64,000 nt of DNA from contig CAWKBO010000006.1 of assembly GCA_963847895.1 (NCBI GenBank), positions 83,451 to 147,450 of the forward strand, written 5' to 3'. Shown one piece after another: positions 51,388 through 55,932 of the stretch (its first letter is position 1; each line of letters opens with the position of its first letter). Position numbers and translations under genes: made by a program. The notes under the pieces were generated by a model. That model ran no database searches. It saw only the letters and a list, made by a program, of their open reading frames with translations, and was not told the DNA's origin. The DNA comes from an uncultured Gemmatimonadales bacterium (GTDB lineage Bacteria; Gemmatimonadota; Gemmatimonadetes; Gemmatimonadales; GWC2-71-9).

Positions 51388-52931
51388 GGCGCCGCGTGTT
51401 GGCGGCGCTGCTGATCGCGCTGGCCGCACGCAGCACCGCCGCGCGTGCCCAGGCGTCGTGGGAGCGGGACGCGCTGACCCGCTTGCGCGACTCCATCCGC
51501 TATTCGGGCGACACCACCGGGATCCGGATGCTCGAGCGGGGGCTCATCGAACAGGCCGCCGCCGAGCGGTTCGAGGCGATGCACCACCTCCGGCTCGGCA
51601 TCATCGCATTGCGGCTGAGTGAGCTCGAGCCCGGTGTGGCCCATCTCGACGACGCGATTGGCGAGTTCCAGTGGGCCGCGGAGCTCCGGCCCGACTGGCC
51701 CTGGCCGTGGTACGGCCTCGGACTGGCCGAGGCGAGTGGCACCGATCGCGCCGCCGGGTTCGCCGGCGGCCTCTATACGATGCTCGGGATCGATCGCGAT
51801 CGGCTCTCCGGCAGTGCGTTCGCTCGCGCCATCGCGGCTGATCCTGCCTTCATCGACGGCCTGCTCGAGTTTGCCCGCGTGGCGCTGGAGCAGCGAATCG
51901 ATGCCCCCCTGGGCCCGGCGGTCGACGCGCTCCGCGCCGCCACGGCATCGCCGATCGGCTGGGACCCGGCGCTACTGCTTGCCCGTGGCCGGCTCGAACG
52001 CCAGGCGGGTCACCCCGATTCGGCGCAGGTCGCCTTCCGCCGCGCCGTGCTGCTGTCGCGCGCGCCCGCGACCGCCGAGGTCGAACTGGCACGGACCATT
52101 CCGCTCACCGGCCCAATCGACGGGCCGTCCGGGCTCCTGCTGCGGCGCGACACCCGGCGCGCCTACCGCATCGCGGCCGCTTCGGCCGATCCGGCGGTGG
52201 TCGCGATGCTTCGCCGCGACATCGAGCCGATCGCCGACTCCGCCGAGCTGTCCGGCTTCGATGCCCAGGCGGCCGCCGATCGGCCAGCGTGGCTCGACGC
52301 ATTCTGGGCGGCCCGCGACGCCGCCGACTTGCGCGACCCGGGTTCCCGGCTCGCCGAGCATTTCCGCCGCTGGGATGTGGCACGGCGCGAGTTCCGCCTG
52401 CCGCCGTTCCGGCGCCGGTATCGCTGGGGCATCGAGACCTGGAAGAGTGGCGACGGTGAGCTCGACGATCGCGGCCTGGTGTACATCCGGCAGGGGGAAC
52501 CGTCGCTTCGCATCGTCTGGCCCAAGTCACGGTCCGCCGGACGGGTCGATCCGCTCCAGCGGAACTACGGCAACGAGTCGTGGCGCTACGACCGGCCCGA
52601 CGGCACCCTCACGCTGCACTTCGTGGCCCGCGATGATCCAGCCGACTACCGGTTGGTCGAGACACCGCTCGAGCTCGACGTCGCCCTCGACCAGCTGGAA
52701 CGCCACGCCCACGAGATCCCCGGGCTCGACCGGCTCGTTCGTGCCGGGGAATACTCGGCCACCTGGGTGAGCGAGGATGTTCGCCAGAAAATCTCGGCGG
52801 GTTGCCCAGCTACAAGTCAAGTCGTGCCGTCAGCGACGGGGCTGACAAGAAAGGCATCGCAGCGGTGTGATTTGTACCGTACGTTGCTTCCAACTGCCCC
52901 CCGGCGCCAATTGGAGAAGTTTACATGTTGA
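51384..52931 (+). CDS. GWxTD-like domain protein, paralog 3; paralog similarity is lost near ~52.79 kb and the ORF tail runs into foreign-looking sequence
   Basis: GTGA-coupled start; [15 protein letters not shown]...[19 protein letters not shown]. The last ~45 codons have no counterpart in paralogs 1 and 2. Confidence 0.55.
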
Positions 52932-53137
52932 TTTTGACCCGCCGTGTAGGTGAGACGCTGATGATAGGGGACGAAGTCACGGTGACGGTCCTCGGCGTCA
53001 AAGGCAATCAGGTCCGTATCGGCATCAATGCGCCGAAGGACGTGCCCGTCCATCGCGAGGAGATCTACCAGCGCATCAAGCGCGAACAAAGCGGTGATGC
53101 GATGCCGCATCAGGAGGAACCCGAGGGCGACAGCTGA
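52925..53137 (+). CDS. csrA: Carbon storage regulator CsrA/RsmA
   Basis: [51 protein letters not shown]. Confidence 0.97.
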
Positions 53138-53240: not shown

Positions 53241-53333
53241 GGAGAGATGCCCGAGTGGCTGAAGGGGCTCCCCTGCTAAGGGAGTATAGGGTTTATAGCT
53301 CTATCGAGGGTTCGAATCCCTCTCTCTCCGCCA
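53241..53333 (+). tRNA. tRNA-Ser (anticodon GCU), long variable arm, encoded CCA
   Basis: Hand-folded cloverleaf: acceptor GGAGAGA/UCUCUCC, anticodon stem CUCCC/GGGAG, loop CUGCUAA, T-arm GAGGG-UUCGAAU-CCCUC. Confidence 0.92.
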
Positions 53334-53370
53334 GACACAAAAGCGCCCCGAAAGGGGCGTTTTTGTGTCT
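53334..53370 (+). terminator. Rho-independent terminator after tRNA-Ser
   Basis: Stem ACACAAAAGCGCCCC / GGGGCGUUUUUGUGU with a GAAA loop; the U-run lies within and after the 3' arm. Confidence 0.7.
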
Positions 53371-53496
53371 GGCGGAGAGAGAGGGTAAGCGGAACCCTCT
53401 CGGTTCGACAAATTGATTCGGGCTGATCCCGGCCCTCTCCCTCTGGGCCATCGCCTTCGGCGACGTTCGCTTCGGCATCCTGCCTCCGCAGTGTCA

Positions 53497-54037
53497 GGAA
53501 CGAATTTGGACAGCCGAAGGGCTGGCCCGCAGCGCAAAGCGCGAAGGGGTGACCCCCATGGATGGGGTGAGCACTAAAATCGTCTGGAACGAATTTGGAC
53601 AGCCGGAGGCTGGCCCCGAAGGGGCGAGTCCCATGGATGGGACGAGCACTAAATCGTTTGGAACGAATTGGGAAGCCGGAGGCTGGCCCCGAAGGGGCGA
53701 GTCCCATGGATGGGACGAGCACTAAAATCGTTTGGAACGAATTTGGACAGCCGGAGGCTGGCCCCGAAGGGGCGAGTCCCATGGATGGGACGAGCAATCC
53801 CAATCTGCATGCTGGGCGAATGCCCCAGCGAGGCCGGCGCTCAACTACGCCGATTGCCACCGATTCCGCCCGGAACGAATTTGGACAGCCGAAGGGCTGG
53901 CCCCGCAGCGCAAAGCGCGAAGGGGTGAACCCCATGGATGGGGTGAACACTAAATCGTGTGGAACGATTTGGACAGCCGGAGGCTGGCCCCGAAGGGGCG
54001 AGTCCCATGGATGGGACGAGCAATCCCGATCTGCATG
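53497..54037 (+). repeat. Six tandem ~73-87-nt modules (two sequence variants), GGA-rich on the + strand
   Basis: Module GGAACGAATTTGGACAGCCGGAGGCTGGCCCCGAAGGGGCGAGTCCCATGGATGGGACGAGCACTAAAATCGTTT. Variant modules carry a 14-nt insertion and compensatory stem changes. Confidence 0.9.
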
Positions 54038-54068
54038 CCGCGGGAACCTCGCAGGGAGTCTGGCGGCT

Positions 54069-54304
54069 TCAGTGCGTCAGCCATTGTTCGACCTTGTCGC
54101 GGCTCGGCACCCCGCCGGCATGGACGACCTTGCCATCGATGACGACCCGGGCGTGGACATGACGTTGTAGCTCATGATGTCTCGCGGCTCCTCGACCTTT
54201 TGCAGCGTGACTTCAATGCCCTTCGCCTGTGCAACCTGTTCGATCAGGGCGACTGTCGATTTGCACTTCGCACAGCCGGTTCCCAGTACCTTGATCTCTT
54301 TCAT
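54069..54304 (-). pseudogene. Small thioredoxin-fold protein (redox-active disulfide protein 2-like), one frameshift in a G-run as assembled
   Basis: MKEIKVLGTGCAKCKSTVALIEQ... Adding one G in CCCGGG restores ...STPGVVIDGKVVHAGGVPSRDKVEQWLTH*. Confidence 0.75.
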
Positions 54305-54337
54305 GACGGACTCCTTGCATTCACAAAACGATGATTC

Positions 54338-55384
54338 CTAGAGCACCGCGTTGAAGACGTAGCCCACGATCAGGATCCCGACTGCAACCACGCCGACGAA
54401 GGTGGCGATCAGTCGCAGCTTCAGGACCTTGCGCAGGATCACCATCTCCGGGAGCGACAGCGCGATCACGCTCATCATGAACGCGAGCACCGTGCCCAGG
54501 GCTGCTCCCTTGGCCAGCAGCGCTTGAACGATCGGGATCACGCCAGCCGCGTTCGTGTACATCGGCACGCCAATGATCACGGCCAGGGGCACGGCCCACC
54601 AGGCCTCCTTGCCCATGAAGGAAGCCATGAAATCCTCGGGAACGTAGCCATGGATTCCCGCACCGATCGCGATGCCTGCGAGGATGTACGGCCAGACCTT
54701 GCCGACGATTTCGCGCACGCCGGCTATCCCCGCATCAATGCGTTCGCCGAGGCCGATTGTTCGTTGCTGGTGCGTGACCGCCGTTCGAGGCATCTCGCGC
54801 ACCCAATCCTCGAGGTAGGCCTCCATAGTCAGCCGTCCAATGACCCAACCGGCCAGGATCGCAATGGTCAAGACCCAGACCGAGATACAGCATGGCGACA
54901 CGCCAGCCGAACATGCCGAACAGCAAGGTAAGAGCCACCTCGTTCACCATGGGTGCCGCAATGAGGAACGAGAACGTGACGCCCAATGGCACGCCGGCCT
55001 GCACAAAGCCAATGAACAGCGGCACCGCCGAGCACGAGCAGAAGGGCGTTACGACACCCAGGCTTGCCGCCATGACATTGGCGACACCTTCCGTACGACC
55101 GGCGAGCAGCGCGCGCGTGCGCTCCGGCGTGAAGTAGGAATTGATCATTCCCATCACGAATACGATGCCGGTGAGGAGCAGCAGCACTTTGGGTGTGTCG
55201 TAGAGAAAGAACTGCAGTGCTCCACCGAGGTGGCTGCTGCGGTCCACCGGCAGCGCGCAACAAGGGCTTCTGACAGCGGTGCGAGGGCCGTGTACAAGCC
55301 CAGCCAGGTGATGAGCGCCAAGGCGATGAACAGGGTGGGTTGCTGGCTGGGCCAGCGCCGCATTGCGGTGGAAACAGCGCTCAT
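54338..55384 (-). pseudogene. Permease (COG0701/ArsP-like), two frameshifts as assembled
   Basis: ...FFLYDTPKVLLLL...VVTPFCSCSAVPLFIGF...APMVNEVAL... plus the C-terminal half in ORF 54338..54901. Confidence 0.7.
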
Positions 55385-55847
55385 AGGTCAAAACCGAAGC
55401 CTTTTCAAACGCGTGTCTTGTCGCCATCCAGTCCAGCAGACGAACGATCATTCGAAGGGATGCAGCGGACGCCCCGGATTGCCGACGCACGATCAGGGCA
55501 GCCGATATCCCGGCGGCCGCACCGACGGCAGCAGTGGCAAATATAGGCGGATTGTCGCGGGCAATCTGTACGGCAACGCACGCTGCGATACGGCAGTCAG
55601 CGCCGGCGATCGCTTCCCAAGTCGAACTCCGTCGCAATGAGCTTTGCGACCACACTTCCGAGGCTATGGCGGTAATGCTCATCAGCGCTCGCCGCTCACC
55701 GCCCTGGCTCGGACTCGTATTGGCGGAGCATGCCCCATGGATAGACGAGCGATTCCAATCAATACCGGAGCGGCTTGCGGTCTTTCCGTTGCCCCTCTAC
55801 CAGCCCCTCGTGTAAACTGCGCGGCCGCATCGCGGGACAGCTTGCAA

Positions 55848-55924
55848 CGCGCCCGTAGCTCAGTTGGATAGAGTACCAGGCTTCGAACTTGGTGGTCGGG
55901 AGTTCGAATCTCTCCGGGCGCGCC
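55848..55924 (+). tRNA. tRNA-Arg (anticodon UCG), encoded CCA
   Basis: Acceptor GCGCCCG/CGGGCGC, D-arm GCUC-AGUUGGAUA-GAGU, anticodon loop CUUCGAA, T-loop UUCGAAU. Confidence 0.88.
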
Positions 55925-55932
55925 ATACACGA

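Follow-up and report, generated by a model that had tools for sequence, protein, structure and literature searches.

Modules and genes downstream of csrA

The 64-kb stretch of contig CAWKBO010000006.1 analyzed here (the window) carries on its plus strand the csrA gene, a tRNA-Ser(GCU) gene and, downstream of both, a tandem array of six GGA-rich, hairpin-forming modules. The csrA gene (52925–53137) encodes a 70-aa protein with a Pfam CsrA domain (PF02599, 93.4 bits), for which no identical entry was found and whose closest matches come from Dyella (88–93% identity over 55–59 aa); it is the candidate protein partner of the array. The stable-RNA gene with which the repeats are associated is the tRNA gene (53241–53333; called by ARAGORN and matched by the Rfam tRNA model at 56.4 bits). 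A plus-strand inverted repeat of 32 bp (53318–53385), recovered by the repeat search with 97% complementarity, comprises the tRNA-Ser 3′ end, a terminator-like G+C hairpin with a T run (53334–53369, +), which is the counterpart of the T1 terminator of the Escherichia coli rrnB operon, and an antisense copy of the tRNA-Ser 3′ end (53370–53385, +). The lead-in of the array (53392–53414, +), delimited from the sequence and by comparison with homologous loci (L011, L047, L055, L067, and L117), begins about 60–75 nt past the tRNA and consists of a hairpin 0 (GAACC-CTCTC-GGTTC) followed by GACAAATT, that is, GA and a remnant of the 5′ arm of the first module hairpin (CAAATT). The array starts 360 nt from the csrA stop, in agreement with the original prediction, made from the letters of this DNA, which had placed six plus-strand modules about 360 nt 3′ of csrA.

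An alignment of 48 module copies from several gammaproteobacterial orders (alignment A1) defined the module as four hairpins (H1–H4) that span roughly 75–90 nt and end in GA(G/A)(C/U)A. H1 has 9 bp and a C-N-GGA loop, H2 has 4–5 bp and a variable loop, H3 (GCCCC/GGGGY) likewise has a variable loop and carries a nested 14-nt hairpin in the A-type copies, and H4 has 5–6 bp and the hexaloop A-N-GGA-N, which is the CsrA/RsmE consensus. Both GGA loops are present in this form in all complete modules of the window. The sequence bears out the A and B variants that had been distinguished beforehand, the nested hairpin of A and the two compensatory swaps of the apex stem; the apex hairpins attributed to the full modules are there too, except that in the first module a C-U mismatch takes the place of the outermost apex pair. 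The borders of the modules required correction: in tandem copies the 5′ arm of H1 belongs to the end of the preceding module, and the borders first drawn were shifted and cut a hairpin in two. Similarly, the motif UGGAAC, described as unpaired, is in fact the loop of the 9–10 bp hairpin H1.

The six modules (M1–M6) occupy 53492–54026, all on the plus strand, and no copy was found elsewhere in the window. A profile built without window sequences returned exactly six plus-strand matches (E 4.9e-19 to 1.6e-12), leaving the rest of the 64 kb empty. M1 (53492–53575) is of A type, with the nested hairpin in H3 (nhmmer without window rows, E 1.6e-12; H4 loop GGA at 53560), and its H1 is interrupted by an insert of ~85 nt (53415–53499, identified from the sequence, with no strand assigned). 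The minus strand of this insert (53411–53496) matched the module model R1 weakly (18.1 bits, E 0.014), and it may be either a decayed, nested and inverted module copy or a chance match. Three B-type modules follow, fused head to tail with M1 and with each other: M2 (53572–53652; R1 87 bits), with GGA in the H1 loop at 53586, in the H2 triloop at 53605 and in the H4 loop at 53635, and whose single-sequence minimum free energy fold is the four hairpins (47% of the ensemble); M3 (53648–53725; nhmmer E 1.1e-14), with GGA at 53660 (H1) and 53708 (H4); and M4 (53720–53814; R1 86 bits), which includes the tail AATCCCAATCTGCATGCTG (53796–53814). After a 47-nt spacer, the A-type M5 (53862–53951; nhmmer E 3.2e-14; H4 GGA at 53936), which lacks the 5′ arm of H1, and the B-type M6 (53947–54040; R1 81.4 bits), which includes the tail AATCCCGATCTGCATGCCG (54022–54040), form a second sub-array. 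Both sub-arrays, M1–M4 and M5–M6, end in AATCCC[A/G]ATCTGCATGC.

The repetitive character of the region was also reflected in the 75-nt period that TRF reported in the array and in the motif CCCATGGATGGG, whose six occurrences in the window all lie within the array on the plus strand (0.67 expected). The GGA tally given previously, about 26 on the plus strand against 7 on the minus strand, proved exact for 53497–54037, where mononucleotide shuffles yielded 16.4 ± 3.3. About ten of these triplets stand in loops, namely in six canonical A-N-GGA-N hexaloops and four complete C-N-GGA pentaloops, to which the B-type modules add the H2 triloops; along the array, intervals of 49 and 25 nt alternate between successive loop GGAs.

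Conservation and distribution of the module family

Across alignment A1, unguided RNAalifold returned the same four hairpins, and 95.3% of the cells were paired, compared with 30–46% when the partners were slid by one to three columns. Double changes occurred at 15 pairs (188 cells), and none of 500 shuffles reached the observed values. The most informative hairpin was H1, which lies outside the pattern used to collect the loci and exhibited compensatory changes at eight of its nine pairs. GGA was retained in the H1 and H4 loops of 47 of the 48 copies, while the loops of H2 and H3 vary freely. The alignment also held 43 G-U pairs against 20 A-C pairs (columns 53 and 79, for instance, form G-C in 28 of the copies and G-U in the other 20), an excess expected of an RNA read from the plus strand. 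Judged by these comparative patterns, the module, which is of the type of the E. coli repeat RrB discussed below, is under selection at the RNA level, with covarying stems and two fixed GGA loops. The earlier description of structured, RNA-like units displaying GGA in hairpin loops is thereby supported. Two further ideas were discarded. A pseudoknot between the GGAU of the H4 loop and an AUCC of the tail could form where the tail is AAUCC, but the GGA is also kept in many copies that have no such tail; and assigning the strand by folding energy was uninformative, as both strands fold well.

The distribution of the family was examined by a pattern scan with GGGGNGANNCCCANGGANGGGNNGA over one genome per species, which yielded at least 120 loci; several of these, Lon protease matches and unrelated matches in Actinobacteria and Firmicutes, were excluded. 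The Lon matches (L023, L026, L029, L039, L087, L092, and L120) fall in the sequence coding for the protease active site (PEGATPKDGPSAG) in unrelated bacteria, which is a coincidence and not homology. With these chance matches removed, the module occurred, among the matches listed, only in Gammaproteobacteria: in Dyella, Rhodanobacter, Dokdonella and other Lysobacterales, in Chromatiales, Methylococcus, Thiotrichales, Aliiglaciecola and Arenicella, and in many Enterobacterales. In metagenomes, the exact 37-nt B-type core gave no match, and a looser A-type pattern gave five loci, four of them linked to tRNA-Gln.

A recurrent feature of these loci is their position behind tRNA genes. At no fewer than 15 genome loci and at four of the five metagenome loci, the first module begins 29–87 nt (mostly 64–87 nt) past a tRNA on the same strand, the linked tRNAs being Ser (GCU, GGA, CGA, and UGA), Gln (CUG) and Arg (CCU), and the arrays often holding two to four modules. 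All tRNA-linked copies are co-oriented with their tRNA. At seven loci (L011, L025, L030, L035, L038, L064, and L091), the tails copy 17–19 of the last 19 nt of the upstream tRNA, which fits the definition of the tRNA-linked repeats (TLRs) of E. coli.

The gene order of the window is itself shared by at least three Dyella loci, in which csrA, tRNA-Ser(GCU), the terminator, the antisense tRNA end, hairpin 0 and the modules (two, two and four copies) follow each other, so that the layout of 53318–53385 recurs there. Hairpins similar to the 32-bp inverted repeat were seen at L047 (7620–7700), L055 (2340–2420, −) and L067 (5490–5570, −). Dyella conserves the antisense piece, TGGCGGAGAGAGAGGG, which could alternatively pair with a TLR tail, mimicking an acceptor/T minihelix. 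A hammerhead-like sequence in the Dyella spacer (CUGAUGAG) was set aside, as neither L047 nor L011 nor the window conserves it.

As a separate observation, the final ~25 nt of the stable RNA lying upstream recur in two halves, one on either side of the module (L038, L121, and window 53401–53416). Thus L038 (1885–2240, −) reads GGTTCGA, module, AATCCTGTCGGGCGCGCCA, and E. coli rrnB (compare L121, 480–585) reads GAGTAGG, module, AACTGCCAGGCAT. These letters give the impression that the module entered a partial gene copy, at the T-loop or, for 5S rRNA, at the 3′ end.

Relation to tRNA-linked repeats, Rfam families and CsrB/Rsm RNAs

The Rfam family of the RtT-type TLRs (RF00391, RtT) gave no match in the window at E ≤10. 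The TLRs of E. coli tRNA operons were reported by Egan and Landy (1978) and Rudd (1999), and are defined by the identity of their final 18–19 nt with the 3′ terminus of the tRNA or rRNA lying upstream (as summarized in Stenum et al. 2021, PMC8144298). The array of the window stands, like them, directly downstream of a stable-RNA gene and on the same strand. Its tails agree with the tRNA-Ser 3′ end at 11 (M4) and 12 (M6) of 19 positions, through AATCCC and scattered matches, so the tRNA-end copy that defines TLRs is degenerate here.

Homology to the E. coli repeats was nevertheless detectable from both sides. In K-12 (L129, 2600–3660, −), csrA, serV (tRNA-Ser GCU), argV, argY, argZ and argQ stand in a row, and the spacers after argV, argZ and argQ hold TLRs that the module model R1 scored at 26, 22.9 and 14.8 bits; the argV and argZ repeats lie outside its seed (E 3.9e-5 and 1.9e-4). 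These E. coli repeats resemble those of the window in lying downstream of tRNAs on the same strand, often in tandem and also in the operon beside csrA, and in the core AAC-H2-H3-GA-H4-GAGUAAUCC, which is followed by the tRNA 3′ end. They differ in type, as the window copies are RrB-like with GGA loops, whereas the K-12 arg repeats, two of which match Rfam RtT (31 and 29 bits), have a GCAA loop in H4 and no recognizable H1. This is in keeping with their low predicted CsrA binding, scored below 0.01 (PMC8144298).

A closer relationship was found with RrA, RrB and RrF, the E. coli TLRs located between the terminators T1 and T2 of rrnA, rrnB and rrnD, whose conservation has been reported within Enterobacterales only (Stenum et al. 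2021, PMC8144298). The rrnB T1–T2 spacer contains H1 as GGACAAAUCCGCC-GGGA-GCGGAUUUG (arm also written ACAAAUCCGCC) followed by AAC, then H2 (GUUGC-GAAG-CAAC), H3 (GCCC-GGA-GGGU), H4 (GGCGGGC-AGGAC-GCCCGCC) and the last 13 nt of 5S rRNA. It was matched at 22.5 bits (E 5.8e-5) by a profile lacking RrB and at 50 bits once RrB was included, and a profile consisting solely of enterobacterial copies plus RrB recovered M1–M6 of the window with E-values between 1.5e-13 and 2.4e-7. RrB and the window share the order H1-AAC-H2-H3-H4, the GGA loops and the placement after a stable-RNA gene and a first terminator; RrB also ends in a copy of the 3′ terminus of its stable RNA. The conserved multi-hairpin build of RrA, RrB and RrF, with two loops that each display GGA, is present in the window, whereas the dual terminators ending an rRNA operon are absent, the array following a tRNA. 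RrB is linked to 5S rRNA, single-copy and bounded by a strong second terminator, and its H3 and H4 sequences differ from those of the window; in the window, by comparison, six modules stand mostly in direct head-to-tail fusion, the tails are degenerate, and no second plus-strand terminator was found.

Among Rfam families, RF02902 (AaHKsRNA22), a small RNA detected by RNA-seq in Aggregatibacter actinomycetemcomitans (PMC5909427), has a consensus with the same four hairpins. A Serratia module copy passes its gathering score of 39.8 (41.1 bits), and window modules score below it (26.3, 24.3, and 23.6 bits). Unlike the module, this family has no described function or tRNA linkage. At gathering thresholds, Rfam found only tRNAs in the window. 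Taken together, we regard it as very likely that the array is a tRNA-linked repeat locus, forming one family with RrA/RrB/RrF and RF02902 and standing at a greater distance from the RtT-type TLRs.

The original prediction had gone further, proposing a candidate CsrA-sequestering RNA built like the CsrB/Rsm sponges and lying beside csrA itself. With CsrB, CsrC, RsmX/Y/Z and RsmU the array does share many GGA-bearing hairpin loops and the proposed mechanism of titration, but not a model match, a GacA/UvrY box or the organization of a stand-alone gene with its own terminator: the best hit to the CsrB/Rsm models (Rfam clan CL00106) was RsmY, whose 10.9 bits (E 5.9) fall short of the threshold of 57, and the box TGTAAGN6CTTACA had no match with up to three mismatches allowed. 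A dedicated gene of the CsrB/Rsm type is not supported by these results. The adjacency to csrA also receives a simpler account. The order csrA–tRNA-Ser(GCU) is found in K-12 as well, which indicates that the synteny is old, and since TLRs gather at tRNA operons, proximity to csrA by itself is no sign of a dedicated partnership.

Proposed CsrA titration and competing explanations

What persists of the sequestration idea draws on the E. coli homologue. RrA, RrB and RrF were bound by CsrA in pull-downs and in electrophoretic mobility shift assays, RrB with a Kd near 100 nM, three GGA to UUU changes abolished this binding, and RrB also binds Hfq; the rrA, rrB and rrF RNAs arise by read-through of T1 and subsequent processing (PMC8144298). 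By analogy, transcription from the tRNA-Ser promoter, and possibly from the csrA promoter too, would pass the hairpin after the tRNA as RrB transcription passes rrnB T1. The tRNA would then be cut out, leaving the downstream RNA as one or several processed species, in which every module would display GGA in the H1 pentaloop and the H4 hexaloop. Given the loop spacings of 49 and 25 nt, one CsrA dimer could bridge two loops and the array could hold several dimers. The titration of CsrA would scale with stable-RNA transcription, and perhaps with csrA transcription as well, which would give rise to negative feedback. While CsrA binding has been demonstrated for the E. coli repeat, we infer transcription, processing and CsrA binding at the window locus from this analogy, and we consider it an evenly balanced proposition that the array acts as a CsrA decoy of this kind.

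Several observations weigh against the decoy. In E. coli, deletion or overexpression of rrA/B/F led to modest and paradoxical CsrA phenotypes, and CsrB outcompetes RrB (PMC8144298). In the window, the promoter scan called no sigma-70-like promoter for the array, the terminator scan found no plus-strand terminator at its 3′ end, and the loss of tRNA 3′-end identity in the tails means that signals for tRNA-like processing may have decayed. In the H1 loop, NGGA is preceded by C instead of A. Moreover, the scanning pattern was derived from H4, so the conservation of the stem core and GGA of this hairpin is in part a product of how the loci were gathered. The dispersed copies described next belong on the same side.

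The strongest competing explanation sees the array as a repeat that is selfish or neutral. The module would be a cassette, mobile or spreading by duplication, that gathers at tRNA 3′ ends and elsewhere; the array would have grown by unequal recombination, and the GGA loops would serve the propagation or processing of the element itself and not the control of CsrA. Copies free of tRNA neighbors fit this explanation well. The Thiotrichales metagenome-assembled genome (MAG) CAZUZO01 holds at least 13 copies on at least ten contigs, in both orientations and with no tRNA nearby (L027, L048, L063, L075, L088, L096, L103, L106, L111, and L114), and other MAGs contain such copies as well. The CAZUZO01 copies share 5′ and 3′ extensions, the latter adding a GGA-loop hairpin (GUGUAC-AAGGGA-GUACAU) and then GAGGAU. 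In E. coli strain 104, a module lies inside an enterobacterial repetitive intergenic consensus (ERIC) element between queA and acpH, and the K-12 site is empty; the comparison (L122, 1100–1330, with L130, 1900–2030) gives an insertion of ~205 nt that reads AAGTAAGTGACTGGGGTGAG, module, CAGTTTGAAGGATGAAGTGTATA, and only 689 of 5426 complete E. coli genomes have such copies. The original prediction had itself named scattering in both orientations as the mark of an ordinary repeat, and this is what the Thiotrichales MAG and the ERIC copies exhibit, whereas the window has one array in one orientation. Copies that are dispersed in both orientations or carried by ERIC imply that spread and array growth need no host function, which keeps a selfish origin under consideration. 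The same can be said of the copy number at the csrA–tRNA-Ser locus, which ranges from two to six, and of the split first module and decayed tails of the window.

Other features fit this explanation less well. The covarying stems, the two loop motifs that are invariant across orders and the G-U pairs confined to one strand point to selection on an RNA, RrB binds CsrA (PMC8144298), and the module has neither inverted terminal repeats nor target duplications. We know of no transposase that reads GGA loops. The likeness to ERIC and to miniature inverted-repeat transposable elements (MITEs) is accordingly partial: the module is found inside ERIC in Enterobacterales, as strain-variable insertions, and dispersed in some MAGs, but the window array is tandem, single-oriented and linked to one tRNA, without terminal inverted repeats. 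Dispersed copies situated between tandem genes were sense in eight cases and antisense in three, which is not significant. On balance, a selfish or neutral repeat appears possible but somewhat unlikely as the full explanation.

Decidedly less probable, in our assessment, is a purely cis-acting element of the tRNA operon, whose hairpins and tRNA-end mimics would steer RNase E or RNase P, or shield the precursor 3′ end, with no role in trans. The distance to the tRNA, fixed at 64–87 nt, the terminator and the antisense tRNA-end copy built into the units, and the tails that copy the stable-RNA 3′ end are all features that such an element could have, and the direction of RNase E cleavage by the repeat was suggested by the authors of the RrB study (PMC8144298). 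This explanation leaves unaccounted for, however, the invariance of GGA in two loops, the head-to-tail modules without tRNA-end tails (M1–M3 and M5) and the copies far from tRNAs.

A function of the minus strand, as the 3′ untranslated or terminator part of the convergent genes for the thioredoxin-like protein and ArsP, which end at 54077, is highly improbable: the only terminator-like calls near the array are on that strand (53359–53344, −) and it folds about as well as the plus strand, but the orientation of the family tracks the tRNA and not the downstream genes, the conserved loop motif is GGA and not UCC, and G-U pairs outnumber A-C pairs. A repetitive protein encoded by the 191-aa open reading frame (ORF) that spans the array (53595–54170), with its repeated GQPEAGPEGASPMDGTS motif and some periods of 75 nt, has a practically negligible chance of being the explanation and was rejected, because the copy spacings (73, 74–75, and 88–89 nt) break the frame and the stem variation is compensatory, following RNA covariation, besides which the homologues after tRNAs have no conserved ORF.

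Returning to the CsrA decoy, its broadest form would make the GGA module a portable CsrA-titration cassette of Gammaproteobacteria, located where tRNA and rRNA operons have their 3′ ends and on ERIC/MITE-like elements. In the source of the window, deemed Rhodanobacteraceae-like, and in Dyella, both taken to be without CsrB/RsmXYZ, the array would then be the main, autoregulatory CsrA antagonist. We advance this generalization tentatively and consider it unlikely to hold as a whole. Xanthomonas, which is without CsrB/RsmXYZ, has only the genus-restricted RsmU, from the comEA 3′ untranslated region (PMC7694677), and for Rhodanobacteraceae-like bacteria we found no described CsrA antagonist in the literature. 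If the generalization were true, CsrA activity would be tied to stable-RNA synthesis, the array co-transcribed with csrA and tRNA-Ser would form an autoregulatory loop, and repeats unexplained since 1978 would at last acquire a function.

To our knowledge, no function of the tRNA-linked repeats has gained acceptance since 1978, and the sole functional lead has been the in vitro CsrA binding of the three rRNA-linked E. coli copies. TLRs in general, and CsrA-binding TLRs of the RrB type in particular, are already known. In the literature searched, we found no description of RrB-type modules outside Enterobacterales, nor of multi-module tRNA-linked arrays of this type. The present analysis adds the occurrence of the RrB-type module across several gammaproteobacterial orders and multi-site arrays after tRNA genes, including one directly after csrA in a lineage without a known CsrA antagonist, which makes the array a testable candidate for the missing CsrA sponge. 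It also adds a comparative argument that the display of GGA is what selection keeps in these repeats.

The convergent genes 3′ of the array encode a thioredoxin-like protein and a frameshifted ArsP permease. The permease (ArsP_1; 54080–55682, −) is divided between two overlapping ORFs that match profile positions 1–120 and 121–293, and the adjoining Thioredoxin_3 ORF, which has an odd C-terminus, matches only positions 2–52 of 76. Such a combination suggests that the interval from tRNA-Ser to a tRNA-Arg gene at 55849–55925 contains frameshifts, pseudogenes or sequencing errors.

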